NCBI GenBank assembly: GCA_047921055.1
Contig: JBLRWW010000010.1
Coordinates: 1 to 36,089, forward strand
DNA from: Acholeplasmataceae bacterium
GTDB taxonomy: Bacteria > Bacillota_I > Bacilli_A > Acholeplasmatales > Acholeplasmataceae
DNA: 36,089 bases
Direction: 5' to 3'
Shown here: positions 5,769 through 33,600 of the stretch, one piece after another
How the letters are laid out: each line of letters opens with the position of its first letter
How positions within the stretch are numbered: position 1 is the stretch's first letter
Position numbers and translations under genes: made by a program
The notes under the pieces: generated by a model
Databases searched by the model: none
The model's input: only the letters and a program-made list of their open reading frames with translations
What the model was told of the DNA's origin: nothing

Positions 5769-7097
5769 TTATTTTGTTGTTTCTTTTTTAATGATAAAGG
5801 TAATCACATAGCCGATAACCAAAACACCCACACCAATCAGTGATGGTACCAAACTTTCAATTAAAGTTGAGATTAATAGCATAACCATACCTGCTATGGC
5901 TAAAATAGGTACAGCTGGATAGCCCCAAACTTTATATGCTCTTGGGTATGTTTCTATTGGCATACGTTTTCTGAATAAGAATACCGAGATAAAAATAAGT
6001 GTGTTAAAAATCAGTCCTGCAAACACAATGAATGTTAAAAGTGCATTAATATCAAACTGCAATGCAATCAAAAAGATTGACATCACACCTGAAATGATCA
6101 ATGCCAATGTCGGTGTTTTATAGGTTGGATGACTTTTCGCAAACGGTTTGAAAAACAAGCCATCTTCAGCCATTTTTTGATAGACGCGTGGGAAAACGAG
6201 AATGCTACCATTAAGTGCACCAAACACTGAGATTGCGACAGATATCATCACAACTAATGCCCCAGAATTGCCAAATAAAACAGCTGCCGCATTAAAGATA
6301 AACCATCCGTTACCTGCTGTAATTAAATCGCCATAAGCAACCAAGCGATATAGTGAAAAGATAAATAAGACATAAATCAGCGTGACACCCAAGATGGCAG
6401 CAATCAATGATTTTGGTAAATCTTTTTTCGGGTTTTTCATCTCACCTGCCACAGAGTTTAGGTTCGTCCATCCCTCATAGGCCCAAAGTGTACCCACAAC
6501 AGCAAATGAAAATGCAATTAAAATATCGAAGAAACTACGGTCAGCAAGTGTATTGGTAGATAAATCTAATGTTTGATTACCCAATACCAAGCCTAAAATA
6601 ATAATCGCAACAATTGGGACAAGCTTCGCAACCATAAAAATGATTTGTGTGATGGTGCCAACTTTAACCCCTAAGTAATTGATCACTGTCAATATGATGA
6701 TTGAAACAATCGCTACCAACCAAATCACATTCGCAAGTGATGGAAAAATATTAGATAAGACTTGACCAAATAATATCGCTAATAGTGCGATACTACCACT
6801 TGAAGATAACACTAGATTCATTATCCCTGCAATAAATGCAACATTTCTACCATAAGCTTTTTTTAAATATACATAATATCCACCATTTTCAGGAAATAGC
6901 GTGCCCAACTCAGCGTATGTCAGCCCTGAAAATAATGTAATCAATCCACCAACAAGCCAAGCCAATAATGATAACGGCAATGAATTGCCGATACGTGATA
7001 AGATTTGACCGCCTAAAAAGAAAATCCCTGAACCGATCATGATACCCGCTAGTATGGAGATACCGCCCCATATGCTAATCTCTTTTTTTAATTCCAT
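5769..7097 (-). CDS. APC-superfamily amino-acid / polyamine permease
   Basis: 12-TM protein with the GSGIF motif (GIMIGSGIFFLGG). Start reset to MELKKEIS at 7097 with AAGGGAGTG SD. The track start at 7316 would overlap the upstream gene by 128 nt. Confidence 0.85.
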   Translation of the reverse strand: MELKKEISIWGGISILAGIMIGSGIFFLGGQILSRIGNSLPLSLLAWLVGGLITLFSGLTYAELGTLFPENGGYYVYLKKAYGRNVAFIAGIMNLVLSSSGSIALLAILFGQVLSNIFPSLANVIWLVAIVSIIILTVINYLGVKVGTITQIIFMVAKLVPIVAIIILGLVLGNQTLDLSTNTLADRSFFDILIAFSFAVVGTLWAYEGWTNLNSVAGEMKNPKKDLPKSLIAAILGVTLIYVLFIFSLYRLVAYGDLITAGNGWFIFNAAAVLFGNSGALVVMISVAISVFGALNGSILVFPRVYQKMAEDGLFFKPFAKSHPTYKTPTLALIISGVMSIFLIALQFDINALLTFIVFAGLIFNTLIFISVFLFRKRMPIETYPRAYKVWGYPAVPILAIAGMVMLLISTLIESLVPSLIGVGVLVIGYVITFIIKKETTK

Positions 7098-7188
7098 TGT
7101 TTCACTCCCTTTATGGTTTTTCGAATGTATAGTATCATATTTTAATTTGAACTTAAAGATATTTGTTTCTATAAAATAAAAAAGCGCT

Positions 7189-8193
7189 CTATAGAGCGCC
7201 AATAGATCTAAAAACAACAATCGTAAAAAAGAGTGTCGCAATCGATAATATGGTTGACCAAACGACCAATTGGTTGGCAAACTTATAATCTTGACCCATC
7301 TCATATGCCATAACAACCGATGAGATGGCGACAGGTGATGCGAAAAGCGCGATTAACGCAGGGTATGCTGATGACATGTTGGGGTAATAACTATTAATTT
7401 CAAGTGCAAGGCCTAACAAAATGACAGGAATCAACACATTTCTTAATATGACACCAATCGTAATTTCTTTAAACGCCGCTTTACCACCTAAAAACTCAAA
7501 TTGTCCCCCCAAAGCAATCAAGGCTAAAGGTGATGCTGTTTGACTAATCCAAATAAGTGGTTGATAGAAAAAACTTAATTGGTTTTTAATACTAAAGACA
7601 AGTTCACCATTTTCAACAGGTATAAACGATCTTAAAAATAAGACGATAAGTCCAAAATAAACACCCATAATCAAAGGATTTTTTATAACTTTAATGAGCA
7701 GCGTCGATATTTTGATATGACCTCCGGTATCATCTTTTTGATAAATGATTAAGGCAATAATACCCAATATATTCATCACCGGTATAACAAAGGCCGCAAC
7801 CAAAGCAACCACAGAAAGTGCATTAGGACCACCAATGGCACCAGCCAGTGGAATACCTAATATAGCAAAATTTGATCGAAATAAGCTTTGAAGCAGAACG
7901 CCTTTTTGTAAATCTTGTTTGGTAATCAAAGGTACGATGAATAGTCCTATGATAAAGATCGCAACAATACCAGACACAGCATATCCGATAATTAACCAAT
8001 CAATCTCAGAAAAATTATCAATGCTATAGATGTTATAAAACAATAAGGCTGGTAAGCCAATTCTAAATATATATTTGTTTAATCCACTGAAAAAATAATC
8101 GTCGAAAAAACGAATTCTTTTTAAAAAGTAGCCAAACGCGATAACCAAAATAATGGGTGTGATTGCGTTAAATGCAAAAACAAATGTGTTCAT
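7189..8193 (-). CDS. AEC (auxin-efflux-carrier / malate-permease-like) family transporter
   Basis: 334 aa, about 10 TM, N-terminus MNTFVFAFNAITPIILVIAFGY typical of the AEC family. AAGGAAG SD. Confidence 0.8.
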   Translation of the reverse strand: MNTFVFAFNAITPIILVIAFGYFLKRIRFFDDYFFSGLNKYIFRIGLPALLFYNIYSIDNFSEIDWLIIGYAVSGIVAIFIIGLFIVPLITKQDLQKGVLLQSLFRSNFAILGIPLAGAIGGPNALSVVALVAAFVIPVMNILGIIALIIYQKDDTGGHIKISTLLIKVIKNPLIMGVYFGLIVLFLRSFIPVENGELVFSIKNQLSFFYQPLIWISQTASPLALIALGGQFEFLGGKAAFKEITIGVILRNVLIPVILLGLALEINSYYPNMSSAYPALIALFASPVAISSVVMAYEMGQDYKFANQLVVWSTILSIATLFFTIVVFRSIGAL

Positions 8194-12264: not shown

Positions 12265-12298
12265 ATAAAAATACCCCTTACCAATGAGATAAGGGGTA
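12265..12298 (-). terminator. rho-independent terminator after flotillin gene
   Basis: TACCCCTT-N10-AAGGGGTA with an A-run at 12265-12271 (U-tract on the minus strand). Confidence 0.6.
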
Positions 12299-12302
12299 TA
12301 TG

Positions 12303-13763
12303 TTATTTTTTAGCTTTGTCTTTTTTTTCTTCTGAAACGACATCTTGTTCAACTTCTGCTTTGACTTCAGCAACCTTTGCATCAGCACTTTGAATGGCTT
12401 CACCTAAATATTTAGGTAAATCCATGCCTGCCATTTCAAATAATTCTCTCATAGGTGGAATTGATTTGAATAAGTTAGACGCGAAATTAGCAGTTGAAGA
12501 ACTTCCATCTTTCGACCCACTATCCCAAACAGTAATTTTATCAAATTTAAGATTTTTAATGGCTTCAACTTGAATACCAACAAGTGTTTCTAATTTATCA
12601 GCAATTAATAACTTAATGGCTGCATCTGGACTATTGCCTGCTGCTTTAACAACTTGCATAAACCCTTGTGCTTGCTTGGATAGAATTTCAAGCATACCAC
12701 GACCTTCGGCTTCCATTTTCGCATATAAACCATCAGCTTCACCTTGTGCTTTTCTTCTGGTTTCTTCTGCGATTGCTTCTGCTTCAATCACTTTCTTTTG
12801 CTTATCGATTTCTGATTTAACGATAACATCTGCTTCAAGTGATGCTTTTTCACGACTTGCACGTGCCAATTCGGCTTTCTTTTCTGCCACATAAGCTTCT
12901 TCTAAAGCTTTTGCTTCTGCAGTCTTTTCAGCTGCTGTCGCGCGTCTTAGTGCTTCAGCTTCGATTTCACGACGACTTGCGTCTGACTTAGAAATATCTC
13001 CTAATGACGTATTTTCACCTTCAATAGCTGTCGCGTTTGCGGTCGCTACTTGAATTCTTTGATCTCTATGTGCATTGGCTTCACCAATAGAACCATCTCT
13101 ATTTTTTTCTGCCACAGATTTTTTAGCATCATTGATCGCTTTTGCTGCTGCTTCTTTACCAAGCGCTTCAATATAGCCTGATTCATCATTAATATCGGTG
13201 ACGTTAACGTTGATCAATCTTAAACCAATTTTCTTAAGTTCGGTTTCAACGTTATCTGAAACAGCTTCTAAAAACTTATCACGATTGGTATTGATTTCTT
13301 CAATATCCATCGTTGCAATAACCAAACGTAATTGACCAAAGATAATGTCTTGTGTTAACTCTTGGATTTCTGCAAGTTTTAATCCTAAAAGACGTTCAGC
13401 GGCATTTTGCATAATACCTGATTCGGTTGAAATACCCACTGTAAATCTTGAAGGTACATCAATACGAATATTTTGTCTTGATAAAGCTTTTCTTAAATCA
13501 ACACTAATTGATAGTGGTGTTAAGTCTAAGAATTGGTACGCTTGAATGAATGGATAAATAAACTTAGCGCCACCATGAATACACTGTGAAGATCGTGATG
13601 ACCCATCAGCGTTTTTGCCAATCTTACCATAGATGACCATGATTTTATCTGAAGGGCATTTACGAATTCTTGTAACTATAAATACCAAAATAGATAAAAC
13701 AATGATGACCAATGTAAAAATTAAACCGATAAAATTTCCTGTTGAACTCAATACATTAAACAT
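12303..13763 (-). CDS. floT: flotillin-like SPFH/band-7 protein (FloT/YuaG type)
   Basis: N-terminal TM helix, SPFH domain, then a long Ala/Glu-rich coiled-coil (EA-repeat) region. 486 aa. Confidence 0.9.
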   Translation of the reverse strand: MFNVLSSTGNFIGLIFTLVIIVLSILVFIVTRIRKCPSDKIMVIYGKIGKNADGSSRSSQCIHGGAKFIYPFIQAYQFLDLTPLSISVDLRKALSRQNIRIDVPSRFTVGISTESGIMQNAAERLLGLKLAEIQELTQDIIFGQLRLVIATMDIEEINTNRDKFLEAVSDNVETELKKIGLRLINVNVTDINDESGYIEALGKEAAAKAINDAKKSVAEKNRDGSIGEANAHRDQRIQVATANATAIEGENTSLGDISKSDASRREIEAEALRRATAAEKTAEAKALEEAYVAEKKAELARASREKASLEADVIVKSEIDKQKKVIEAEAIAEETRRKAQGEADGLYAKMEAEGRGMLEILSKQAQGFMQVVKAAGNSPDAAIKLLIADKLETLVGIQVEAIKNLKFDKITVWDSGSKDGSSSTANFASNLFKSIPPMRELFEMAGMDLPKYLGEAIQSADAKVAEVKAEVEQDVVSEEKKDKAKK

Positions 13764-13776
13764 ATGTTATCTCCTT

Positions 13777-14370
13777 TTATTTTTTTATGCTTACAACTAC
13801 CGTTGTATCATTTTCTAAGCCAATAATCTCAACCATCGTTTTAGATAACAAATCTGTCTTTTCGTCTGTAATCGCATCAACTTCAATAAATCGATCTTCC
13901 AAACTTAAAACAACTTTGCCTCTACCTGTTCTTTCCATCGGAATACGAATATACACAGTGGCCATTTTTCCAATAGTTCTGTTATAGTCGAGGTTTCCTG
14001 AAGATTCTAAATTCATTGCAGCCTTAAAGGCAAGCGCCTGTAAGTAACTTGCAAGTACACCTGTTAAAACCCCTATCAGTAAAACCAAAAGGACATGCAT
14101 CACGGGTGCGAATATATACACAACCCAGCCCCCAACACTTAAAAAAGCGAGTGCGCCACGAATCGTAAATATCTTTAGACCTGTAATTGCAGATAGCGGT
14201 TCATCTGAAAGAAATTCAAGATCAGCATCTTGAAATCCGCCATCATATGTTGCATCGTCCATGCCAAACATCATTAAAATCAAAAAAATAAGCATAATGA
14301 TTGTCGCAGTCACTGCAAGAATAAATGCAATTTGCTGCAACGCCATTAAATTTGACCACCAAAGTGCCAT
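13777..14370 (-). CDS. NfeD-family membrane protein (flotillin partner)
   Basis: Polytopic N-terminal region plus a C-terminal soluble beta-rich domain. Located immediately upstream of flotillin. Start set at MALWW (14370) with GGGGA SD. The alternative start at 14388 lacks an SD. Confidence 0.75.
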   Translation of the reverse strand: MALWWSNLMALQQIAFILAVTATIIMLIFLILMMFGMDDATYDGGFQDADLEFLSDEPLSAITGLKIFTIRGALAFLSVGGWVVYIFAPVMHVLLVLLIGVLTGVLASYLQALAFKAAMNLESSGNLDYNRTIGKMATVYIRIPMERTGRGKVVLSLEDRFIEVDAITDEKTDLLSKTMVEIIGLENDTTVVVSIKK

Positions 14371-14467
14371 ATCATATTCCCCTTTCATACGATGATTACT
14401 TACCTATAATTATATCATAATTATAGTATATTTTTACATAAAGATTATAAAAAAAGGATGATGATTA

Positions 14468-16120
14468 TCACCCTTTTTGAATATGCTTAACCAAATCATC
14501 TGCAGACATCGGTCGACCCAAATAATATCCTTGCGCATAATCACAATCCAATGACTTCAACAATTGAAGTTGATGTTCATTTTCAATGCCTTCTGCAACA
14601 ACTTTCATGTTTAAATGGTGTGCTAGATCAATAATGTATTTAAGTGTTTCTTTATCGTTGTTGGTCTCAATACAATTGGTAATAAACTGACGATCAATTT
14701 TAATGGTATGTATCGATAAATTTTTCAAATAAGTCAAAGAAGAATATCCTGTGCCAAAATCATCTAAAGCAACCTCAAAGCCCATGCGACTTAAATCCTT
14801 AAGGACTTTTTCGGTGTATGCCAAGTCTTCAATCATCGCTGTCTCTGTGATTTCTAATGTGATTTGTTTGCAATCAACACCGAGTACATCACACATCTCG
14901 TGTAACGATTCAATAAAAACAGGATTAATTAATGATTTGGCAGATAGATTAATAGACATCTTAACTGCACCCAAATCATGTACTTTCCATGACAAATGCT
15001 TTTTAAATGCATTTGTAAAAACCCAGTCATTGATTTTGTGAATAAGGCCAGTAATTTCAGCGACCGGTATAAAATCAAGTGGTGGAATAAATCCTTTTGA
15101 TACGTGTGGCCAACGAATCAATGCTTCAACGTTTGCAACTTTTTGCGTTTTTAAATCATAAATGGGTTGGAAATATAACATAAAATCATTATTTTTTATG
15201 GCTTGATGTAAATTTTGGATAAGCTCAATTCTATCTGTACGTGCTTCTGCCATATCTTTTTGGAATGCAACAACACGATCTTTACCAAGTGACTTGGCAT
15301 GAATCAGTGCCGTATCTGCACTGCGCATAAGGTCATTAAATACTTTACCGTCTTTAGGATAAAAGGCAATCCCCGCACTGACAGACACAGCATAATCTTC
15401 TTCGCCAATGCGGTAAGATTTACTGAGTTTTTCAATTAATGATTGCACATCATCGATACTTGCATTTTCATCACCTTGACATTCTAGAATTGCAACAAAG
15501 CGATCCTCACCTAATCTTGATAAAAGATTCGGTGCTTTTACTAGGCTAGATAACAGTCGGCTCATATCGACTAAGACTTGATCACCGGCTTGATAACCAT
15601 ACATTTCATTGATATGTCTAAAGTCATCCACATCAAAATAAACAACAGCAAACGTTTGTCCTTCTTGTCCGTGGTTTTTAGACATCTGCTTGATATGCTT
15701 CATCACATATGCTTTATTAGGTAACTGTGTTAATTCATCATAATAGGCTGTTTGATGTAACTGGCGCTCAAATGATAATAATTCTTGATGTGCTTTTTCT
15801 AGTTCAATATATGCCAAATCAAGGACATCAATTTTTTCAACATACTTTTTCATTTGATTGAATATAATCATATAAAAAATGGCAGCTGAAGCGACGACAT
15901 AAAACCAGCCTTTATAGAGTTGTAATCGTTGAAAAACGATTGGGTCATCAACGGCGATAATCAATAGTTCATCAGATAAAAAAATCCATAGAAACCCAAT
16001 AATCATATAAATCAATATGATTCTTAATGATGCAATGACTGGATTTAAATTTTTCTCTTTTTTTAGATAATTTAAATGTTTTTCTTGATTGGTCATATAT
16101 GTTTCTTCCTTGTTTTTCAT
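14468..16120 (-). CDS. membrane-anchored GGDEF-EAL protein; GGDEF site degenerate (RLGEDRF), EAL catalytic motifs intact
   Basis: Two N-terminal TM helices. The GGDEF-domain alignment gives SRLGEDRFVAIL in place of RxGGDEF. The EAL domain carries QPIYDL, VEALIRW, DDFGTGYSSL, AEGIE and QGYYLGRP. An alternative start at 16096 has an AAGGAAG SD. Confidence 0.85.
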   Translation of the reverse strand: MKNKEETYMTNQEKHLNYLKKEKNLNPVIASLRIILIYMIIGFLWIFLSDELLIIAVDDPIVFQRLQLYKGWFYVVASAAIFYMIIFNQMKKYVEKIDVLDLAYIELEKAHQELLSFERQLHQTAYYDELTQLPNKAYVMKHIKQMSKNHGQEGQTFAVVYFDVDDFRHINEMYGYQAGDQVLVDMSRLLSSLVKAPNLLSRLGEDRFVAILECQGDENASIDDVQSLIEKLSKSYRIGEEDYAVSVSAGIAFYPKDGKVFNDLMRSADTALIHAKSLGKDRVVAFQKDMAEARTDRIELIQNLHQAIKNNDFMLYFQPIYDLKTQKVANVEALIRWPHVSKGFIPPLDFIPVAEITGLIHKINDWVFTNAFKKHLSWKVHDLGAVKMSINLSAKSLINPVFIESLHEMCDVLGVDCKQITLEITETAMIEDLAYTEKVLKDLSRMGFEVALDDFGTGYSSLTYLKNLSIHTIKIDRQFITNCIETNNDKETLKYIIDLAHHLNMKVVAEGIENEHQLQLLKSLDCDYAQGYYLGRPMSADDLVKHIQKG

Positions 16121-16213
16121 TTGTTCGCCCCCCGATTCAAATGAATTGATATATTAATTATATATGAAAAACGTATTAAAACTACATTAAAAGCATAATT
16201 CAATCTTATATCC

Positions 16214-16243
16214 AAAAAAAAACACAGCCTTAATGACTGTGTT
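16214..16243 (-). terminator. rho-independent terminator after aminopeptidase gene
   Basis: AACACAG-N9-CTGTGTT with an A7 run at 16214-16220. Confidence 0.6.
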
Positions 16244-16256
16244 TAATGACCTCAAT

Positions 16257-19016: not shown

Positions 19017-20435
19017 TTAGGGAATTTCGATGATGCGCATCGTATTGGTTGACCCATGTTTTTGGGCCCAACCTGATGTCATAATGATGGTTGTTCCTGA
19101 GGTAAAACCATAATCTCTGGCAACTTCAATGGCCACTTGATCATAAAGTGCGTAATCTTTAACATTATCTCTCAGTGCTGAATGCACACCCCAATAATAG
19201 GTAAGTTTTTGACACGTCTCAATATCATCGGTAATCGCGATAATCGGCACTGATGGTCTGTATTTACAAATCCGCTTGGCTGTACCACCAGTTTCTGTAA
19301 AGGCGATAATAACTTCTGCTTTAGGTAGTGCTTGTGCAGTTTGACTCACAGCAATCCCAATGGCATCATTAATGGTTTGACCGCTCGTACTGATGAGTTT
19401 TCTTAACCGTTCTTCATAAGGAATACTATCTTCAATGGCTTTGGCGATGGTATCCATCACTAAAACCGCTTCAATTGGATAATCGCCTGCAGCAGTTTCA
19501 CCTGAAAGCATAATCGCATCAGAACCGTCTAATATGGCGTTTGCGACATCGGATGCTTCAGCACGCGTTGGGCGAGGTGAAGCCATCATGGATTCTAACA
19601 TGTGTGTTGCTGTAATGACAGGTTTACCACTTAAGTTTGCTAAAGCAATGATGCGTTTTTGATAAAGTGGTACCAGTGATGTTGATACCTCAACACCTAA
19701 GTCACCACGTGCGACCATCACGCCATCTGAAACTTTTAAAATAGATTCTAAATTGTCAACGCCTTCTTGATTTTCGATTTTAGCAATCAATTCAATGTTG
19801 GTATTGCCAGCTTTTTTTAAAATCTCTTTAACTTCTAAGACGTCTTCTTTTCTTCTCACAAAAGATAGTGCGATCATATCAACATTTTCTTTTGCAGCAA
19901 ACATAATGTCATCATAATCTTTTTTTGAAATAAATGGCATCGATAGTTTAACATTAGGGACATTGACGCCCTTTTTGCTTTTGATGACACCCGGATTATT
20001 GACGCGACATGTTAACACATCTTTTGTCGCTTCAATAACTGTCAGTTTCATTTTTCCATCATCAATGAGAATGAATTCACCTTCGTTAATATCTTCAAAT
20101 AATTCTGGACATTGAATGTGAAATCTTTCATGATTCCCCAAAACTTCTTTTTTCCACAATTCAACGATATCACCTGTTTTAAAGGTTGCTTTGCCGTTTT
20201 CAAAATCGCCCGTCCGAATCTCAGGACCTTTCGTATCTGCCATAATGCCTATAAAACGATCTTTATCTTTAGCAACTGCTCTAACGATATCTATTCTTTT
20301 TTTGTGTTCATTATGATCAGCATGAGAAAAATTAAGTCTTGCGACATTCATCCCAGCATCGATTAATTTACCAATCATTTCTACTGACTCGCTAACCGGG
20401 CCAAGTGTACATACTATTTTTGTCTTTCTTTTCAT
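19017..20435 (-). CDS. pyk: pyruvate kinase
   Basis: 472 aa. KIVCTLGP N-terminus and the MVARGDLGVE active-site motif. AAGGAGG SD. Confidence 0.95.
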   Translation of the reverse strand: MKRKTKIVCTLGPVSESVEMIGKLIDAGMNVARLNFSHADHNEHKKRIDIVRAVAKDKDRFIGIMADTKGPEIRTGDFENGKATFKTGDIVELWKKEVLGNHERFHIQCPELFEDINEGEFILIDDGKMKLTVIEATKDVLTCRVNNPGVIKSKKGVNVPNVKLSMPFISKKDYDDIMFAAKENVDMIALSFVRRKEDVLEVKEILKKAGNTNIELIAKIENQEGVDNLESILKVSDGVMVARGDLGVEVSTSLVPLYQKRIIALANLSGKPVITATHMLESMMASPRPTRAEASDVANAILDGSDAIMLSGETAAGDYPIEAVLVMDTIAKAIEDSIPYEERLRKLISTSGQTINDAIGIAVSQTAQALPKAEVIIAFTETGGTAKRICKYRPSVPIIAITDDIETCQKLTYYWGVHSALRDNVKDYALYDQVAIEVARDYGFTSGTTIIMTSGWAQKHGSTNTMRIIEIP

Positions 20436-22651: not shown

Positions 22652-25279
22652 TTATTTTCTTGGATTTTTAATGTTTGCGTGTGCTGCTGCTAAACGTGCA
22701 ATTGGCACTCTAAATGGCGAACAAGAAACATAGTTTAATCCGATTTTATGGCAGAATTCAACTGATAGTGGATCCCCACCATGTTCACCACAAATACCAA
22801 GTTTAATATCTTTTCTTGTTTTTTGACCACCTTGAACAGCAAGTTCCATTAATTTACCAACACCGTTAATATCGATATGGGCAAATGGATCATTAGCGAA
22901 AATCTTTTTCGTGTAGTAATCGCTTAAGAATTTACCAGCATCATCGCGGCTAAAACCAAAGGTCATTTGCGTTAAGTCATTGGTTCCAAAGCTGAAGAAT
23001 TCAGCTTCTTTTGCCACTTCGTCAGCTAAAATCGCTGCACGTGGAATTTCAATCATCGTACCCACTAAATACTTAAGTTCAACACCAGCGGCCTTAATGA
23101 TTTCATCAGCTGTCTTAACGACAACATCTTTCACATACTTCAATTCTTTAACTTCACCAACCAAAGGAATCATAATTTCAGGGACGACATTGCCGCCTTC
23201 TTTATTCACTTGAATCGCAGCTTCGATAACCGCACGTGTTTGCATGACTGCAATTTCTGGATACGTAATACTTAAACGTACACCACGGTGTCCTAACATT
23301 GGATTGGTTTCGTGTAACTCGTTAATAGTACCACTTAATTCTTCAAATGAAAGACCCATTTCTTTCGCAAGTGATCTAATATCTGATTCTGCAGTCGGTA
23401 AAAATTCATGAAGTGGTGGATCCAAATAACGAACAGTCACTGGGTAACCTTTCATTTCTTTATATAGACCAATAAAGTCTTCTCTTTGCATTGGTAATAA
23501 TTTAGCCAGTGCGCGTTCTCTTTCTTGAAGTGTCTTAGCGACAATCATTTCACGAACAGCTGGAATACGGTCTGCTTCAAAGAACATATGTTCAGTACGG
23601 CATAAACCGATACCTTCAGCACCAAACTCATACGCTACTTTCGCATCTCTAGGGTTATCAGCATTGGTTCTAACTTGTAGTGCGCGATGCTTATCTGCCC
23701 ATGACATTAAGGTTGCAAAATCGCCTGATACGGTTGCATCAACAGTAGGCACTTTACCACCATAAACAATACCTGTTGAGCCATCAATTGAAATCCAGTC
23801 GCCTTCAACAAATTTGTTGCCGCCGACAGTGAAGTATCCTTCTTTTTCATTAACATGTACTGATCCAGCACCTGCAACACAGCATGTACCCATGCCACGT
23901 GCAACAACTGCCGCATGTGATGTCATACCACCGCGTGATGTTAAGATACCAGAAGCAACAATCATACCTTCAATATCTTCAGGAGATGTTTCTTGTCTAA
24001 CTAAAACCACAGGTAAGCCATCTTTAGCTTTCAATTGTTTTGCGCGTTCTGAATTAAATGTGACACGACCGGTTGCTGCACCAGGAGATGCATTAAGCCC
24101 ATTGGCAATGACAGTCGCATTTCTTAATTCTGTTTGGTCAAATTGTGGGTGTAACAATGAATCTAATTGTGAAGGTTCAACTTTTAATAAAGCTTCTTTT
24201 TCAGTTAAAATGCCTTCTTGAACAAAATCGATTGCTAATTTAACAGCTGCTTGTGCAGTCCGTTTACCATTACGTGTTTGAAGCATGTAAAGTTTACCTT
24301 TTTCAATGGTAAATTCCATGTCTTGCATATCACGATAATGTGCTTCTAACTTTTTAGAAATGGCTGCAAATTCATTATATAATGCTTCGTTATCGTTTTT
24401 AAGTTCAGCTATTGGTTTTGGTGTACGAATACCTGCAACAACGTCTTCACCTTGTGCATTAAATAAGTATTCACCATATAATTCATCAGTACCATCAGAT
24501 GGATTTCTTGAAAAGGCAACACCTGTGCCAGAATCTTCGCCCATATTACCAAATACCATGGCTTGTACGTTAACTGCTGTACCCCATTCGTAAGGAATAT
24601 GATTTAAACGACGATATGTGTTTGCGCGTGGGTTATCCCATGATCTAAAGACTGCAGTGACTGCGCCAATGAGTTGTTCTTTTGGATCTTGAGGAAATTC
24701 TTCGCCTTTAAGTTCTAAATATTTAGCCTTAAATTGAGCAACCAATACTTTAAGGTCATTCGCATCCAAATCAGTGTCTAATTCAACACCTTTTTTCTCT
24801 TTCATTTGTTCAAGTAAATGTTCGAAATTTTCTTTGCTAATGTCCATAACAACATCAGCGAACATTTGCATAAAACGACGATAAGAGTCATATGCGAAAC
24901 GTGGATTTTGGGTCAAATCTGCTAATCCTTCAACAACTTCATCGTTTAAACCTAAGTTTAAGATGGTGTCCATCATACCTGGCATTGACGCACGGGCACC
25001 TGAACGTACTGAAACAAGTAATGGATTATTGACATCGCCAAATTTCTTACCGGTTTCAACCTCTGTGTTTTCTAATGCTGTAAAAATTTGGCTGATGATT
25101 ACTGGGTCAATGATTTTACCCTTATTATAATAATCAATACATGCCTCTGTTGTTACTGTGAAGCCTTGTGGTACTGCAATACCCAAACTTGTCATTTCTG
25201 ATAAGTTGGCGCCTTTACCACCAAGAAGGTTTTTCATTGAAACGTCGCCTTCTTTAAACAAGTATACATACTTTGTCAT
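22652..25279 (-). CDS. ppdK: pyruvate, phosphate dikinase
   Basis: 875 aa. Phosphohistidine motif GGMTSHAAVVARGMG, an N-terminal ATP-grasp region and a C-terminal PEP-utilising TIM-barrel (GICGEHGGDP). AAAGGAAAT SD. Confidence 0.95.
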   Translation of the reverse strand: MTKYVYLFKEGDVSMKNLLGGKGANLSEMTSLGIAVPQGFTVTTEACIDYYNKGKIIDPVIISQIFTALENTEVETGKKFGDVNNPLLVSVRSGARASMPGMMDTILNLGLNDEVVEGLADLTQNPRFAYDSYRRFMQMFADVVMDISKENFEHLLEQMKEKKGVELDTDLDANDLKVLVAQFKAKYLELKGEEFPQDPKEQLIGAVTAVFRSWDNPRANTYRRLNHIPYEWGTAVNVQAMVFGNMGEDSGTGVAFSRNPSDGTDELYGEYLFNAQGEDVVAGIRTPKPIAELKNDNEALYNEFAAISKKLEAHYRDMQDMEFTIEKGKLYMLQTRNGKRTAQAAVKLAIDFVQEGILTEKEALLKVEPSQLDSLLHPQFDQTELRNATVIANGLNASPGAATGRVTFNSERAKQLKAKDGLPVVLVRQETSPEDIEGMIVASGILTSRGGMTSHAAVVARGMGTCCVAGAGSVHVNEKEGYFTVGGNKFVEGDWISIDGSTGIVYGGKVPTVDATVSGDFATLMSWADKHRALQVRTNADNPRDAKVAYEFGAEGIGLCRTEHMFFEADRIPAVREMIVAKTLQERERALAKLLPMQREDFIGLYKEMKGYPVTVRYLDPPLHEFLPTAESDIRSLAKEMGLSFEELSGTINELHETNPMLGHRGVRLSITYPEIAVMQTRAVIEAAIQVNKEGGNVVPEIMIPLVGEVKELKYVKDVVVKTADEIIKAAGVELKYLVGTMIEIPRAAILADEVAKEAEFFSFGTNDLTQMTFGFSRDDAGKFLSDYYTKKIFANDPFAHIDINGVGKLMELAVQGGQKTRKDIKLGICGEHGGDPLSVEFCHKIGLNYVSCSPFRVPIARLAAAHANIKNPRK

Positions 25280-25329
25280 ATTTATTTCCTTTCTTTTTTT
25301 CGTTTTATATTAAAATCTCTTTATTGAAA

Positions 25330-26280
25330 TTATGAGATCTTCTTAACCAATTTATAAAGTTCATTCTTAGGTCTTTGTTGATCAATCACATTAACAAATG
25401 GTAAGTGAATCATGCGCGAATCTCTGACACCCACACAAACACCAAAGATACCATCATTAATTAAATCAATCGCATAAGCACCCATACGTGATCCTAAAAT
25501 ACGATCATCAGGACATGGCGAACCACCACGTTGAATGTAGCCAAGTACTGTTGCTCTAGATGTGAATCCTGATTTTTCAGTAATCTCTTTAGCAAGTTCA
25601 TGTGGATCAATAATTTTTTCTGTGATTACAACAATCGCGTGTCTTCTACCCGCTTTTGAATGTTGATTTAAACGTTTAATCATTTCTTCTTTACGCATAG
25701 GATTTTCTGGAGTAATGATGAATTCTGCACCACCACAAATACCTGCGAAAAGTGCCAAGTCACCACTGTGACGTCCCATCACTTCGATGATTGAACATCG
25801 TCTGTGTGCATTAGATGTATCTCTTAATTTATCAATGGCATCGACGATGGTTTCAACGGCCGTATGAAAGCCAATCGTAAAATCGGTACCAGCGATATCA
25901 TTATCGATGGTTCCGGGTAGTCCGATGCATTGAATGCCCATTTTGGTTAGTGCCATTGCACCTTTATATGTGCCGTCGCCACCAATCACAATTAGTGCTT
26001 CAATACCTCTTTTTTTTAAGTTATCAACGCCAATTTGACGTACCTCTTCTTTAAGAAATTCAGGCACTCTAGCTGTACCGAGTTCGGTACCACCTTTGGT
26101 TAACATCCCTGAAACAGTTTCGTGTGTCATTAAGATCATATTGTCGTTTATAAGTCCTTCGTAGCCGTCTTTGATGCCAAAAATCTCATGTCCATACGAA
26201 ATACCCGTACGCACAACAGCCCGAATGGCGGCGTTCATGCCAGGCGCATCGCCACCTGATGTTAGTACTCCAATTTTCAT
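25330..26280 (-). CDS. pfkA: ATP-dependent 6-phosphofructokinase
   Basis: 316 aa. GGDGT and PGTIDND motifs with Gly at both ATP/PPi-discriminating positions. AGGGAG SD. Confidence 0.95.
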   Translation of the reverse strand: MKIGVLTSGGDAPGMNAAIRAVVRTGISYGHEIFGIKDGYEGLINDNMILMTHETVSGMLTKGGTELGTARVPEFLKEEVRQIGVDNLKKRGIEALIVIGGDGTYKGAMALTKMGIQCIGLPGTIDNDIAGTDFTIGFHTAVETIVDAIDKLRDTSNAHRRCSIIEVMGRHSGDLALFAGICGGAEFIITPENPMRKEEMIKRLNQHSKAGRRHAIVVITEKIIDPHELAKEITEKSGFTSRATVLGYIQRGGSPCPDDRILGSRMGAYAIDLINDGIFGVCVGVRDSRMIHLPFVNVIDQQRPKNELYKLVKKIS

Positions 26281-26411
26281 CTGATTTAACTCCCTACTAT
26301 TGTATGCAAATATATTATAACATAATAATTTAGAAAGTGTAGTGACACACCGATATCTTCAATTTATGAAAACGATTTACTTTGTTTTTACCCTATTTTT
26401 TTCCTATTTTG

Positions 26412-26420
26412 TGTTAAAAT
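26412..26420 (+). promoter_or_regulatory. extended -10 element (TGnTAAAAT) for the PPi-PFK gene
   Basis: TGTTAAAAT at 26412-26420, about 30 bp upstream of the ATG, within the 167-bp pfkA/pfp divergent region. Confidence 0.4.
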
Positions 26421-26453
26421 AGAAGAAAATCAATAAGAAAATGGTGAATGTAT

Positions 26454-27701
26454 ATGAAAAATTTAAAAGGCGCTGCATTGCTTGGTCAATCAGGTGGTCC
26501 AACCAGTGTGATCAACGCGAGTGCTGCAGGCGTTTTTATTGAGGCTTTAGCCCAAGAAAACATTACAGAAGTTTATGGTGCCGTTCATGGTATTAAAGGC
26601 ATCTTAAATGAAGAGTTTTATGACATTGGAAAAGAAGATATTGAAGAATTAAAGCGTTTGAAAAACACACCTTCTTCAGCCATTGGTAGTGTCCGTTATA
26701 AAATGAAAAATCCAAAGGTCGATGATAGTGAATATCAACGTCTTTTAGAGGTTTTTAGAAAATATAATATCCGTTACTTCTTTTATAATGGTGGTAACGA
26801 CTCGATGGATACATGTAATAAAATCAGCAAGTATTTTAAAAATGCTGGCTTTGATTGTAACGTTATGGGTGTCCCTAAAACCATTGATAACGACTTAAAT
26901 GTGACCGATCACTCTCCAGGATATGCCAGTGCAGCAAAATATGTTGCAACGACATTTATGGAACTTTATCATGATGCTGTGGTTTATGACATTGAACAAG
27001 TCACGATTGTTGAAGTGATGGGTAGAAATGCTGGGTGGCTCACTGCAGCTTCTGCTTTAGCACAAGCCAAAGGTCAAGGGCCAGATTTAATTTATCTACC
27101 AGAAGTTCCTTTTGACATTGAGACGTTTTTCGCACAAGTTGATGAAGTCTTAAAAGCACGTGGCAATGTGATTGTTGCGGTTTCTGAAGGTATTAAGACC
27201 AAAGAAGGTAAATATATTCCCGAACTTTATCAAGAAAACATTAAAAAAGACGCATTTGGTCATGCTCAATTAGGCGGTACAGCACAAGTATTGGCTCAAG
27301 AGTTGTCTCAAAGACGTCAAGTGAAGGTCCGTGCGATTGAATTTAGTTTACTTCAAAGATGTGCGGCACACTTAGCATCTAAAGTTGATGTGACTGAAGC
27401 ATATAATGCTGGTCGCCGTGCGGTTAAAGCTGCGGTTAAAGGATCAACAGATAAAATGGTTGGCTTTAAGCGTGTATCATCAAATCCTTATAAGATTAAA
27501 TATGTTTTAATCCCATTAAAACAAGCTGCCAATACAGAACAAAAAGTCCCACTTGATTGGATCTTGCCAGATGGTAAGGGCATGTCACAAGCGTTTATCG
27601 ATTATGCACTGCCTTTAATCCAAGGTGACGAAAAAGCAAAATTAGTAGACGGCTTACCTCATTTTGCAGCATTAAAGAAAATACGTGTTCAAAAGAAATA
27701 A
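26454..27701 (+). CDS. pfp: pyrophosphate-dependent 6-phosphofructokinase (PPi-PFK, Pfp)
   Basis: PFK fold with GGNDS in place of GGDGS (Asp at the G104-equivalent) and PKTIDND in place of PGTIDND (Lys at the G124-equivalent). This is the PPi-PFK signature. Start at 26454 (MKNLKG) after GGTGA. An alternative ATG lies at 26448. Confidence 0.88.
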   Translation: MKNLKGAALLGQSGGPTSVINASAAGVFIEALAQENITEVYGAVHGIKGILNEEFYDIGKEDIEELKRLKNTPSSAIGSVRYKMKNPKVDDSEYQRLLEVFRKYNIRYFFYNGGNDSMDTCNKISKYFKNAGFDCNVMGVPKTIDNDLNVTDHSPGYASAAKYVATTFMELYHDAVVYDIEQVTIVEVMGRNAGWLTAASALAQAKGQGPDLIYLPEVPFDIETFFAQVDEVLKARGNVIVAVSEGIKTKEGKYIPELYQENIKKDAFGHAQLGGTAQVLAQELSQRRQVKVRAIEFSLLQRCAAHLASKVDVTEAYNAGRRAVKAAVKGSTDKMVGFKRVSSNPYKIKYVLIPLKQAANTEQKVPLDWILPDGKGMSQAFIDYALPLIQGDEKAKLVDGLPHFAALKKIRVQKK

Positions 27702-30655: not shown

Positions 30656-30690
30656 TAAAAGCCCGATGGATGACATCGGGCTTTTTTTTA
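30656..30690. terminator. bidirectional rho-independent terminator (M20 peptidase / giant gene convergent)
   Basis: AAAAGCCCGATG-gatga-CATCGGGCTTTT followed by T8. Confidence 0.75.
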
Positions 30691-33600
30691 TGCGTTATTA
30701 TTTTTCAATAGTGAAATCAAAGATGCACGCTTAATTCTAAATGGTGCGAAATCCTCATAATCAGATGGTGCGAGCTGTGCCATTAATAATGGTTGATCTT
30801 GAATGATATCATCAATAATGTAATAAATAATAGTGTTTTCATTATCTAAGATAATATCAACTTCTTCATCTGTTAAATCAAGTATTGCTGTAATATTGAT
30901 GCTCGTTAGATCGTTGATGGTATTTACTCCTAATAAAGGCATTGATTCTGCAAGGCCTTCCATCTCAGCAATCTTAATGTCAAACACCTCTGGTACACCT
31001 GGTAGACCTGGGTCATAGTTATCAGCGGTTGTATCCGATACATGTGATTCAATTGTATCGATCTCAGAATCATTTATACCAATGGAAATCAATCGATAGA
31101 CAATTAATGATTCTTCATTAATAAGTGCTTGCAACATTGATGGTCCAAAACCTTGAGGGTCAATGGATACATCAGCAAGTGATGTGGTCTCTGGATCTGC
31201 TTGACCTGGATTTTCACCAACATCGCCAATAGTCTTAAGTGCACTGATTAATTTAACTATTTCATCATATTCTAAATCAAAGGTGTTTCTATACGCTGTT
31301 GTTGGGATACCATAATCATGTCCGCTTCTTACATCTGTTACTGACGCGACCATTGGAGTCGATAAGATATGTGCAACAAGTGGTGAGAATCCTAATGGAT
31401 AATTGACTAGATCTGTCGTTCCAATTGCAACAACTTGATCAATCTTAGCAAACGTGATTTGTGCTGGTGTAATGTTTGATGCACCATTTGTTTCTAAACC
31501 TAGAATTTCAAGCGCTTCTAAAACTGCATCAATTTCTGCACGTTTGATATCTTTCTTAAAGACGAGTTCAGTATAACTTTCATCAGGAATCTTGCCTTCA
31601 TCAAGTGGGTCTAGCGCGTCAATTAACGCGGTTGAAATCATTCTGTTTAAGATGATTGAATCATCTGGGAATTGTTTTAATGTTTCTACAGTGAGGCTAG
31701 CTTCATCAATTGTAATACTTGAAACAACAACATCATCTGCAACTTGTGGAGGTATTGGATCTGCTAATATTTCAAGAACACCGATCATAGCACTAACTTC
31801 AGAAGGTCTTAAATTATTGTTCTTATCATCATCAATATGCGCTGTGTCTGGAATTCTTTCTGCACCTAGCATATCTATAATGGTATCTGAAATCAATTGT
31901 GTGATGATTAAGGATGGTGACGCCTCAAGTTGTTTAACTTGTCCAATGGTGACATCGGTACCAACTTCTGAAACTAAGTCACCTTCATCGCCTAAAATTG
32001 CTAAGGCGTCAATCATATCTTCAATTTCATCATCAGTTAAGCGGTTATTGCTATCGTCACCAATATAAGCATCATCAGGTATATTATCTGCACCAATCAT
32101 GGTAACAATTGAATCTGTGATGATTTGCTTAATAATGACTGAATCTGATGTCTTTAACTGTTGTGCTTGGCCAACGGTGACATTTGGTGTTATGCTGCTA
32201 ACTAATATATGGTCTCGATCGCCTGGGGTTTCAGAACCCGCAAGAATTTCAAGAACGCCAATCATTGCAGTGACTTCAGCTGCTTTTAAGTTATTGCCTG
32301 GTGTATCTAATTGATATGCATCGTCTGGAACACTGCCAACACCAACTGCTGTAATGATTTGATCTGAGATCAATTTTTCAATAATTAGAGATGGTGATGC
32401 GTTTAACTCTTTGAGTTGTCCAATGTTAATATCGGTTTCAACTTCTGTGACTAAGTCTTCATCATCACCCAATACCGAAATCGCATCAATCATGTTTTCA
32501 ATTTCACTATCAGTTAATCTGTTTCCTGGCGTTGAATCAACATAAGCATCATCAGGAATATTTGCAACACCGATCATTTCAATGATTGAATCAGAGATAA
32601 TCTTCTTCATGATCAATGACTCTGTTGTCTTAAGATCTTGCGTTTGTCCAACAGTGACATCGGTTGAAATGCTTGATAATAAGACATCATCAGTAACTTG
32701 TGGTGCCACAGGCACTGCCAATGTTTCTAGCACTGCAATCATTGCAGTGATTTCATCTTCAGTTAAATTATTGTTTGAATCGCCGTCGATGTATGCCTCA
32801 TTAGGTACATTAGCAACACCAACTGCATCAATAATGGAATCAGAAATCAATCGTGCCATAATGACTGAAGGAGACGCATTTAATAGCTTAAGTTGGCCAA
32901 TATTAATGTCTGTTGAAACATCAGAAACCAAGAGTGTATCATCTCCGTTAGCTAAAATATCAATGGCATCAATCATCGCATTGATTTCATCGTCTGTTAA
33001 ACGGTTTGATGGATCGCTATCAATGTGTGCATCATCTGGAATTGTATTATCAACACTCAAACTATCGACGATTGAATCAGAGACCAATTGACGAATAATA
33101 ATCGAATTGTTAAGCTTAAGATCTTTTAATTGACCGACATTGACATCTGTTGAGACGTCTGAAACCAAGAGTGTGTCATCATCATTTGATAATATTACGA
33201 TCGCATCGATCATTTCATTGATTTCATCATCAGTTAAGCGATTGGCTGGATCATTATCAATATGTGCTTCATTTGGAATTGTATTATCAACACTTAATGT
33301 ATCAACAATCGAATCAGAAACCAATTGACGAATAATAATCGAACCATTAAGTTTGAGATCCTTTAATTGGCCAACAGTCACATCAGTTGACACATCAGCA
33401 ACTAAAAGAGAATCATCATCATTTGATAATATCACGATTGCATCGATCATTTCATTGATTTCATCATCAGTTAAGCGATTGGCTGGATCGTTATCAATGT
33501 GTGCTTCGTTTGGAATAGTATTATCAACACTCAATGTATCAACAATCGAGTCAGAGACCAATTGCTTAATAATTAATGAGTTGTTGGTTTTAAATGCCTT

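Follow-up and report, generated by a model that had tools for sequence, protein, structure and literature searches.

Does the GGDEF-EAL protein encoded by an Acholeplasmataceae bacterium still make c-di-GMP, does it only degrade it, or is its gene on the way out of the genome, and has it anything to do with the flotillin-like gene lying close by? These questions arise from the window, namely the whole stretch of 36,089 nucleotides that was analyzed (positions 1 to 36,089 of contig JBLRWW010000010.1, assembly GCA_047921055.1), in which an earlier reading of the letters, hereafter called the original prediction, had recognized a phosphodiesterase with an inactivated cyclase site. The evidence reported below makes it likely that the product is a phosphodiesterase specific for c-di-GMP, anchored in the membrane and no longer capable of synthesizing this messenger.

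Domain architecture and membrane hairpin

The open reading frame at 14468..16120 on the minus strand is complete, beginning with ATG and running uninterrupted over 550 codons (550 aa); translation could alternatively start at codon 9, another ATG in the same frame, which follows the sequence AAGGAAG. The two domains attributed to its product match their Pfam profiles above the curated cut-offs (E values of 1.3e-36 for GGDEF and 1.5e-73 for EAL), so that this part of the original prediction holds. NCBI gives the protein the name 'putative bifunctional diguanylate cyclase/phosphodiesterase', an exact-sequence look-up of the 550-aa protein returned no record, and searches of genome and metagenome contigs with it retrieved distant relatives only (32-38% identity). 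The gene is an already annotated and ordinary representative of membrane-anchored, predicted c-di-GMP phosphodiesterases.

Its AlphaFold model (mean pLDDT 86) begins with a helical hairpin formed by residues 27-56 and 60-126. This corresponds to an N-terminal two-helix membrane hairpin (15845..16042, minus strand; residues ~27-92) with the motif GFLWIFLSD ... KGWFYV, followed by a signalling helix (15749..15844, minus strand; residues ~93-124) that prolongs the second membrane helix without a break. Residues 28-46 form a strong hydrophobic segment (Kyte-Doolittle 2.41), and a second segment at residues 72-90 reaches ~1.5, under the threshold of 1.6; the former segment and the modelled hairpin agree with the membrane anchoring proposed earlier. 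No Pfam or NCBIfam model matches the hairpin, which many signalling proteins carry at their N-terminus (2823 hits). It constitutes an uncatalogued module common to thousands of PAS, GAF, histidine-kinase, GGDEF, EAL and HD-GYP proteins and merits a family definition of its own.

The EAL domain is complete

The EAL domain (14510..15217, minus strand; residues 302-537) scores 247.5 bits against PF00563, for which the cut-off is 31.3, and covers profile positions 2-236 of 236. Each of the motifs listed in the original prediction is present, namely EALxR (EALIR at 332-336), DDFGTGYSSL (453-462) and EGIE (510-513), whose positions were verified by script, together with QPI and GYYLGRP; loop 6, of the form DFG(T/A)GYSS, is intact within DDFGTGYSSL. 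The catalytic set is also complete (E332, R336, N391, E423, E426, D453, D454, K474, D476, E510, E513 and Q530), and all 12 of these columns are invariant across 34 family members. The EAL half carries the full complement of metal-binding, substrate-binding and general-base residues (Glu and Arg of EALxR, the Asn, ExxE, DD, KxD, EGxE and QG), and hydrolysis is predicted.

The GGDEF domain is folded but degenerate

The GGDEF domain (15278..15748, minus strand; residues 125-281) scores 126 bits against PF00990 and is predicted to retain its fold, with pLDDT values of 82-93 as means of 10-residue blocks. Its signature is degenerate. The script-verified stretch RLGEDRF at residues 202-208 places GEDRF (15497..15511, minus strand; G204 E205 D206 R207 F208) where GG(D/E)EF is expected, and the alignment bears out the earlier reading that the second Gly and the metal-binding Glu are replaced, the former by Glu and the latter, at the fourth position, by Arg. 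An RxxD I-site was not found five residues upstream of the signature, where the protein reads K195-A-P-N198; this inhibitory site is an optional feature of many cyclases, and an xPNM-type sequence occupies its position throughout the whole homologue family. Both the GEDRF signature and the KAPN stretch in place of RxxD are in line with the predicted loss of cyclase activity.

Other parts of the domain have been maintained. Among 34 sequences, D163, D165, N171 and D180 do not vary, and D163, R168, N171, D180 and R202 are kept in all five members of the clade described below, but position 4 of the signature is Arg in the window protein and a His is replaced by Tyr throughout the clade, which reads GY..GD where canonical relatives have GHxxGD. 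The residues contacting GTP are assigned here by their correspondence to the numbering of PleD, in which R168 is a Lys. Given R207 in place of the metal-binding Glu, binding of GTP.Mg may be weaker or lost in the window protein; two clade members, of xEDEF type, retain this Glu.

Degeneracy is confined to one sub-clade

The four closest orthologues, of 56-71% identity, bear the signatures GEDRF, SEDEF, GEDKF and SEDEF, whereas the inspected homologues of at most 45% identity (P0006-P0040) all have GGDEF, unaltered or with a conservative change. Degeneracy of the signature is clade-specific, competence for cyclase activity having apparently been lost in one sub-clade, and by its position the gene is the orthologue of a conserved GGDEF-EAL gene of Acholeplasmataceae. 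Mean identity within the clade is 47% for the GGDEF domain, 65% for the EAL domain and 77% for the linker, that is, the signalling helix, which is the best-conserved segment; among canonical relatives the corresponding means are 64% for GGDEF and 70% for EAL.

Since dS is saturated in most pairs (pS ~0.7), the usable measures are dN ratios and a local dS proxy of ~0.9 taken from the neighbouring M29 aminopeptidase gene. In comparison with L005, the closest orthologous locus, dN is 0.33 for the GGDEF domain and 0.15 for the EAL domain. Because a dN of 0.33 stands against an M29-derived dS of ~0.9, the GGDEF domain is under relaxed selection without being neutral. It is the fastest-evolving part of the phosphodiesterase, itself the fastest-evolving gene of a well-conserved block.

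Transcriptional context and the neighbouring flotillin gene

A hairpin resembling an intrinsic terminator (16220..16244, minus strand) ends the upstream M29 aminopeptidase gene and delimits the phosphodiesterase transcription unit on its 5' side. At the other end, a terminator-like hairpin followed by a U-run (14449..14478, minus strand; -13 kcal/mol, z -5.35) overlaps the phosphodiesterase stop codon; it was missed by the default terminator scan and found by direct folding, and the related locus L010 has a hairpin of different sequence at the equivalent position. Beyond it, the spacer contains promoter-like TATAAT boxes. Next on the same strand come a small polytopic membrane protein, NfeD-like by position (13777..14388), just upstream of the flotillin gene, then a flotillin-like SPFH/Band_7 protein of 486 aa (12303..13763) and a further terminator-like hairpin after the latter (12271..12299). 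Hence, a separate transcript is predicted for the phosphodiesterase, and the NfeD-like/flotillin pair does not appear to be part of its unit.

The original prediction had placed the gene directly upstream of an nfeD-floT pair. The adjacency stands, with the same strand and a gap of 79 nt, whereas the NfeD label finds no support in profiles. The protein of 13777..14388 (annotated by NCBI as the 197-aa 'hypothetical protein ACNA7K_02675', implying a start at 14370) has no match at all in Pfam, even at E <=5, no NfeD support from NCBIfam and no match in a PDB sequence search; precomputed Pfam domains are likewise absent from all 91 of its homologues, and the NfeD name is given by the source on two of them only. 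The flotillin-like protein matches PF01145 with 95.8 bits and reaches 131 bits with the FloT equivalog model, against a cut-off of 700.

The association of these genes varies among related loci. In L005 the order M29 - phosphodiesterase - NfeD-like is the same and the locus ends before floT, while in L006 a partial downstream ORF matched none of the window neighbours used as queries. Two of the four closest orthologous loci have the phosphodiesterase without floT, namely L003, where the NfeD-like gene survives in truncated form, and L004, which has neither neighbour. The NfeD-like/flotillin pair is also near the phosphodiesterase in the more distant loci L008 and L009, but with three genes in between. 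A functional link to nfeD-floT, as the original prediction implied, is accordingly weak, considering the terminator-like hairpin at the stop codon and the loss of floT in L003 and L004.

A pseudogene in the closest collinear relative

Loci L010 and L011 are fully collinear with the window, with flanking genes of 95-97% identity, but what remains there of the phosphodiesterase gene is codons 1-54, with a frameshift, and codons 491-550, with in-frame stops, ~1.3 kb being missing. L010 nonetheless retains the NfeD-like gene (87% identity) and the flotillin gene (96.5%). That the closest relative has deleted the gene shows the phosphodiesterase to be dispensable; given the pseudogene of this sister lineage (ENA assembly ERZ23498389, scaffold_34), its function is non-essential and may be impaired already. 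As for the filler of ~130 nt that replaces the deleted segment in L010, its identification as the C-terminus of an aminotransferase was rejected, as it has no Pfam match and no source in the window.

c-di-GMP signalling in the window and in the taxon

No other GGDEF, EAL, HD-GYP or PilZ protein was found among the non-overlapping ORFs of at least 100 aa in the window (shadow ORFs within longer genes being excluded), a profile scan which agrees with the earlier statement that these 36 kb hold no intact GGDEF protein. Nor does the window contain a c-di-GMP riboswitch or another regulatory RNA, the only Rfam match being a tRNA. It had also been suggested that a membrane-anchored enzyme of PDE-only type is unexpected in a relative of wall-less Firmicutes, yet among mollicutes Acholeplasmataceae is the very lineage for which use of c-di-GMP is known: 14 GGDEF/EAL proteins are encoded by A. 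laidlawii (PMC2408644), the only mollicute known to use this messenger (PMC11535214). Homologues with the same architecture (~545 aa) occur in Acholeplasmataceae, Izemoplasmatales, Mariniplasma, Peloplasma and "Tenericutes MO-XQ", and a related contig carries two more GGDEF-domain genes, one coding for a stand-alone GGDEF protein beside the orthologue and the other, upstream, for a GGDEF-HD-GYP protein. Hybrids with an active EAL and a degenerate GGDEF domain are a frequent, textbook class; a census reported 2556 proteins having the EAL active-site motif only, a figure in which EAL-only proteins and hybrids are counted together (PMC2952852).

Proposed mechanism and its alternatives

In the mechanism that we favour, the two-helix membrane hairpin would continue into the long signalling helix, which is likely to pair into a coiled coil within a dimer and would position the GGDEF domain. 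The active-site half of this domain is presumably dead (GEDRF), its fold and the guanine/phosphate contacts D163, R168, N171, D180 and R202 being kept, and the EAL domain would hydrolyse c-di-GMP to pGpG. The degenerate GGDEF domain would then most likely be a regulatory adaptor, perhaps, by analogy with PdeA (CC3396), a GTP sensor activating the EAL domain, and would in addition pass on any signal perceived by the membrane hairpin.

The product name given by NCBI implies instead a protein that both makes and degrades c-di-GMP, and the intact fold of the GGDEF domain, its strong Pfam score and the canonical GGDEF signature of homologues at <=45% identity, which may be bifunctional, would fit that name. 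Yet a signature with Glu for the second Gly and Arg for the fourth-position Glu argues against it, and CC3396, whose GEDEF is the closest precedent for the Gly-to-Glu change, lacks cyclase activity. Only GG(D/E)EF and a few variants at the first position (A/SGDEF) are known to be active, and we regard bifunctionality as extremely improbable. A gene decaying as a relic under little or no selection, and heading for the loss seen in the sister lineage, we consider unlikely. Its 550-codon frame is unbroken and, despite 30-45% divergence, the 12 EAL catalytic residues and loop 6 are intact in 5/5 clade members; moreover, dN is well under the local dS proxy, and canonical relatives conserve the linker and the membrane hairpin less well than the clade does. 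Decay would nevertheless account for the deletion in L010 and L011 amid collinear neighbours that are 95-97% identical, for the lower identity of the phosphodiesterase (56-71%, vs 80-91% for M29 and ~90% for glutamate dehydrogenase), for its higher dN in comparison with L005 (0.21, vs 0.057 for M29) and for a cyclase function that would have been lost before the deletion.

It is also conceivable that a functional coupling to the NfeD-like/flotillin pair makes the protein a trigger enzyme or a receptor, sitting in membrane microdomains, being regulated by them or controlling them through the level of c-di-GMP. All three products are predicted membrane proteins, the genes are adjacent on the same strand with a gap of 79 nt, the order M29 - phosphodiesterase - NfeD-like recurs in L005, and the pair is found in the same neighbourhood in L008 and L009; but in the latter loci three genes intervene, L003 and L004 have the phosphodiesterase without flotillin, L010 keeps the pair after losing the phosphodiesterase, and in the window itself a terminator-like hairpin lies on the stop codon with TATAAT boxes in the spacer. 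At the level of titles and abstracts, no paper tying flotillin to c-di-GMP turnover was found. We therefore hold such coupling to be very unlikely. Equally little probability attaches to its most specific form, in which the hairpin, in a bacterium without a cell wall, might read the state of the membrane or enter flotillin microdomains built by the neighbouring pair, flotillin scaffolding gating the local degradation of c-di-GMP. In milder terms, the locus may record a stepwise erosion of c-di-GMP signalling in one mollicute lineage, from canonical GGDEF-EAL to phosphodiesterase only and then to pseudogene.

The phosphodiesterase gene matters little in itself, the hybrid class being familiar and c-di-GMP genes of Acholeplasma being already known. 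Of modest interest is the one syntenic locus that is found in three states (canonical, phosphodiesterase only and deleted), a compact example of the possible loss of c-di-GMP signalling in mollicutes.

Comparison with known systems

The neighbours of the gene, and only these, resemble the YuaF(NfeD2)-FloT pair of Bacillus subtilis in having a small membrane protein, a gap of 13 nt, a SPFH/flotillin gene of ~480-500 aa and a terminator. The likeness is limited, for the upstream protein of the window has no NfeD profile or structure match and its flotillin scores 131 vs 700 bits; the YuaF-FloT operon of Bacillus is not known to contain a c-di-GMP gene.

Much closer is the ~545-aa family of two-TM-GGDEF-EAL proteins of Acholeplasmataceae and Izemoplasmatales (for example P0006, P0012, P0057 of Peloplasma and P0093 of Mariniplasma), which shares with the window protein its length, hairpin motif, linker and EAL motifs. 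These genes are positional orthologues because they have the same genomic neighbourhood, namely pyruvate kinase - MatE - [gene] - M29 peptidase, albeit with the order relative to M29 swapped with respect to the window. The proteins differ in having GGDEF or GGDEY together with GH..GD, whereas the window clade has [G/S]ED[R/E/K]F together with GY..GD; in addition, L008 and L009 possess an adjoining gene for an extra stand-alone GGDEF protein (AGDEF), which the window lacks.

Among proteins of known structure, MorA of P. aeruginosa is the best sequence match in the PDB (E 4e-90, residues 122-542), and RmcA (PA0575) with GTP superposes on the GGDEF-EAL unit of the model with a TM score of 0.83 (target-normalized) at 3.7 A; structures of MorA, RbdA (PA0861) and DosP also superpose on this unit. 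MorA, RmcA and RbdA, which are the best matches in both sequence and structure, resemble the window protein in domain order, in a helical linker that leads into GGDEF and in the active site of EAL, although identity to them is only 28-34%. In the alignment the signature of MorA is canonical, unlike the GEDRF of the window. The signatures of RmcA and RbdA are canonical too, and all three proteins have much larger, sensory N-termini (PAS and others).

The most instructive comparison is with PdeA (CC3396) of Caulobacter crescentus, which like the window protein combines tandem GGDEF and EAL domains with an EAL of active type and no cyclase-competent motif. Its GEDEF domain is devoid of cyclase activity (PMC4823724; bioRxiv 10.1101/2025.08.14.670421); it binds GTP and stimulates the EAL domain (PMC4823724; bioRxiv 10.1101/2025.08.14.670421; PMC2952852). 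PdeA GEDEF and the window GEDRF share the change of the second Gly to Glu and Asp at position 3, orthologues of the latter having SEDEF and GEDKF; the residues predicted to contact guanine and phosphate are likewise retained in the window protein, and EAL structures of PdeA superpose on its model with a TM score of ~0.9 (target-normalized) at ~32% identity. The signatures diverge at position 4, where PdeA keeps the metal-binding Glu and the window protein has Arg, and PdeA, from an α-proteobacterium, is soluble and of PAS-GGDEF-EAL architecture, whereas the window protein lacks a PAS domain and carries a two-helix membrane hairpin. PdeA is not orthologous, the degeneracy having arisen independently inside Acholeplasmataceae from canonical GGDEF ancestors. 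A signature [G/S]ED[x]F that is conserved in a clade, independently of the GEDEF of PdeA, hints that cyclases have turned into regulatory domains more than once by the change of the second Gly to Glu.

Domain Architecture and Catalytic Residues

The 550-residue product of the phosphodiesterase ORF (14468..16120, - strand) contains a GGDEF domain at residues 125-281 (Pfam, E 1.3e-36), followed by an EAL domain at residues 302-537 (E 1.5e-73). The motifs quoted in the original prediction are all present at the positions checked, namely EALIR (332-336), QPI, DDFGTGYSSL (453-462), EGIE (510-513), GYYLGRP and RLGEDRF (202-208). The catalytic columns of the EAL domain are invariant in a family alignment of 34 members, and the window protein retains every one of them (E332, R336, N391, E423, E426, D453, D454, K474, D476, E510, E513 and Q530). 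The cyclase signature is degenerate, as had been proposed, since it reads G204-E205-D206-R207-F208, and K195-A-P-N198 occupies the position of the RxxD motif of many cyclases. We consider it likely that the protein is a phosphodiesterase only; an active cyclase was rejected upon failure of the GGDEF signature test, and the public annotation of the product as "bifunctional" is probably mistaken for the degenerate clade. There are two candidate start codons in the region 16096-16120 (- strand), the ATG at 16120 with GGGGGG 8 nt upstream and an ATG at codon 9 preceded by AAGGAAG; the length of the N-terminus differs among the orthologues.

Membrane anchoring, also part of the original prediction, is supported by a strongly hydrophobic stretch at residues 28-46 and a weaker one at 72-90 (hand-computed Kyte-Doolittle value of ~1.5). 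In the AlphaFold model (mean pLDDT 86) both segments form a helical hairpin (H27-56 and H60-126), the second helix of which runs unbroken into a signalling helix of ~30 residues ending at the GGDEF domain. This N-terminal two-helix hairpin (residues 22-100; 15821-16057, - strand) has no Pfam or NCBIfam model, and a search with it matched 2823 representative proteins at E <= 0.001. Among the 150 matches listed, the match begins within approximately the first 50 residues, and in ten sampled proteins the outputs joined to it are PAS, GAF, HisKA-HATPase(-REC), GGDEF, EAL or HD-GYP. The hairpin seems to be a promiscuous, so far uncatalogued module for membrane input or anchoring. Its motif reads LNP..S.KII..Y..iGfLWI..SD, then a loop of ~18 residues and Q..KG.FYV..TA..FY.II.

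Evolution of the Degenerate GGDEF Domain

The GGDEF signatures were counted over all 120 listed homologues. The window protein (GEDRF) shares the additional marker GY..GD with its four closest orthologues (P0002-P0005; 56-71% identity), which carry GEDRF, SEDEF, GEDKF and SEDEF, respectively. The following homologues (P0006-P0040, all inspected) show at most 45% identity and have the marker GH..GD together with GGDEF or a conservative variant of it (GGDEY, SGDEF, NGDEF and, in one case, SGDGF). These sequences indicate that the degeneracy is clade-specific and conserved. The degenerate-clade loci L003, L004 and L005 are collinear in the order glutamate dehydrogenase, pyruvate kinase, MatE, M29 peptidase, the phosphodiesterase and, further on, DUF2188 and SNO/SNZ; in the loci with canonical motifs (L007, L008 and L009) the gene lies on the opposite side of the M29 peptidase. 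The window phosphodiesterase and the compared relatives are positional orthologues.

Mean identity in the degenerate clade versus the canonical relatives is 67% versus 47% for the N-terminal hairpin, 77% versus 56% for the linker, 47% versus 64% for the GGDEF domain and 65% versus 70% for the EAL domain. In the comparison with L005, dN is 0.33 for the GGDEF domain, 0.15 for the EAL domain and 0.08 for the linker, with dS saturated inside the gene; the neighbouring M29 gene has a dN of 0.057 and a dS of ~0.9. The pattern of identity and dN thus places the GGDEF domain under relaxed, not absent, constraint, as expected for a domain without catalysis but with a structural or regulatory role. Residues D163, R168, N171, D180 and R202 are kept in all five members of the degenerate clade; by our own mapping, we take them to correspond to PleD D327, K332, N335, D344 and R366, the GTP contacts in active cyclases.

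The closest collinear relatives have lost the gene. L010 (a 142-kb scaffold, ENA ERZ23498389) and L011 (a Logan contig, run SRR16631311) share the gene order of the window over 20 kb at ~86% nucleotide identity, most of the neighbouring proteins being 95-97% identical. Only remnants of the phosphodiesterase persist between their M29 and NfeD-like genes, forming a pseudogene (L010 9306-10000; L011 1560-2254) orthologous to window 14389-16256. Codons 1-54 are retained with a frameshift near codon 33 and codons 491-550 with two in-frame stops, and ~1.3 kb (approximately 14650..15956 of the window) is swapped for ~130 nt of unrelated sequence; the lesion is the same in both samples, which are possibly not independent. 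The gene is dispensable in this lineage, and among its known relatives the locus is found as a canonical GGDEF-EAL gene, as a phosphodiesterase-only gene or as a pseudogene. The existence of these three states makes it more probable that the copy in the window is a relic too, but we regard that as unlikely; its uninterrupted frame and perfect EAL site argue that it still works.

c-di-GMP Signalling in the Acholeplasma Lineage

The phosphodiesterase had been considered unexpected in this taxon, a premise that is true of mycoplasmas but does not apply to the Acholeplasma family. A. laidlawii has 14 GGDEF- and/or EAL-domain proteins, a type absent from other mollicutes (Galperin genome column, PMC2408644), and is the only mollicute known to use c-di-GMP according to a 2024 paper (PMC11535214). 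In the homologue search the exception reaches well beyond A. laidlawii: many proteins of ~545 residues match the window protein from the N-terminal hairpin through the linker to the GGDEF and EAL domains, and the named ones among them belong to Acholeplasmataceae, Candidatus Izemoplasmatales, Mariniplasma anaerobium, Peloplasma aerotolerans and "Tenericutes bacterium MO-XQ". The related 128-kb contig L008 has three such genes inside 8 kb: the GGDEF-EAL orthologue, a stand-alone membrane GGDEF protein (AGDEF) and a 5TMR-LYT-GGDEF-HD-GYP protein with its own signature, GGGEF. The gene is therefore expected in this lineage. The polytopic AGDEF gene (L008 11779-12798; L009 2926-4068) directly follows the orthologous GGDEF-EAL gene, and the HD-GYP gene (L008 4912-6930) lies a few kb upstream of it. 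The window lacks both of these genes seen in more distant Acholeplasmataceae-like contigs, and the phosphodiesterase is the sole c-di-GMP signalling gene among its non-overlapping ORFs of at least 100 residues, all of which were scanned; an Rfam scan of the window returned one tRNA and nothing else.

Genomic Neighbourhood

The phosphodiesterase is indeed adjacent to the proposed nfeD-floT pair, but three lines of evidence oppose functional coupling: separate transcription, loss of the neighbours and loss of the phosphodiesterase. A hairpin followed by a U-run (14478..14449; -13 kcal/mol, z -5.35) overlaps the stop codon of the phosphodiesterase and equals the terminator of the M29 gene in strength; L010 has a hairpin of different sequence at the equivalent position, and several TATAAT boxes lie within the 79-nt spacer. 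These elements argue for a phosphodiesterase transcribed apart from the pair. L004 keeps the phosphodiesterase and lacks both neighbours, and L003 keeps it along with a truncated NfeD-like gene, flotillin being absent; conversely, the NfeD-like gene (87%) and flotillin (96.5%) are still present in L010 and L011, where the phosphodiesterase has been lost. In L008 and L009 the pair is three genes distant. Both genes of the pair are nonetheless part of one old syntenic neighbourhood with the phosphodiesterase, and local gene loss and rearrangement seem to have brought them next to it in the window.

The flotillin gene (12303..13763, - strand) encodes a 486-residue SPFH/flotillin-like protein (Band_7, 4.2e-27) that scores far under the cut-off of the FloT equivalog model. 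The 203-residue polytopic membrane protein encoded between it and the phosphodiesterase (13777-14388, - strand) occupies an NfeD-type position directly upstream of flotillin, but the label NfeD is not sustained by any profile or solved-structure match. Its 91 homologues, most of them Acholeplasmatales-like, all lack Pfam domains, and NfeD is hinted at solely by two source-given names. NCBI annotates a hypothetical protein of 197 residues starting at 14370, with AAAGGGGAA before the ATG.

Elsewhere in the window, pyruvate phosphate dikinase (22652-25279) adjoins two divergently transcribed phosphofructokinase paralogues (25330-26280, - strand; 26448-27701, + strand; cluster 22652-27701), with pyruvate kinase (19017-20435) close by; the cluster may represent PPi-linked glycolysis. 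The amino-acid permease ORF (5769-7316, - strand; 515 residues from a mechanical TTG start) overlaps the upstream Mem_trans gene (7189-8193, - strand) by 128 nt; its orthologues in L010 and L004 have 442-445 residues, so the true start is probably ~70 codons downstream. The strongly acidic ORF at 30688-36042 (- strand; at least 1784 residues, 217 Asp), which probably runs past the window end, has no significant Pfam domain and about ten tandem repeats of ~95-100 residues each (RLTDDEI..MIDAI.IL.N.DD.LLV.DVSTDVNVGQLK...IKQLVSDSIVD); the TTG start assigned to it mechanically is probably not the true one.

Proposed Mechanism and Known Systems

The phosphodiesterase would be a homodimeric membrane enzyme. 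Its hairpin and signalling helix would relay a membrane-proximal signal, its degenerate GGDEF domain would serve as an adaptor that may sense GTP, and its EAL domain would hydrolyse c-di-GMP. The GTP-sensing step is proposed tentatively, because R207 replaces the metal-binding Glu that PdeA keeps.

Caulobacter PdeA (CC3396) is the nearest functional precedent, its GGDEF domain (GEDEF) having no cyclase activity but binding GTP and activating the adjoining EAL domain (PMC4823724; bioRxiv 10.1101/2025.08.14.670421; PMC2952852). As in PdeA, the Acholeplasmataceae clade has Gly2 changed to Glu and Asp at position 3, acquired independently; unlike PdeA, the window protein has R207 at the position of the metal-binding Glu. 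It was rejected as an orthologue of PdeA and is a member of an Acholeplasmatales two-TM-GGDEF-EAL family. The GGDEF-EAL unit of the model superposes best on GTP-bound P. aeruginosa RmcA/PA0575 (TM 0.83 normalised to the target, 3.7 A), and also on MorA, RbdA and DosP. One census found the EAL active-site motif alone retained in 2556 proteins, EAL-only proteins being counted along with hybrids (PMC2952852). By analogy, the window phosphodiesterase may work like PdeA-type enzymes and, more broadly, like EAL-active, GGDEF-degenerate hybrids, a common and already known class.
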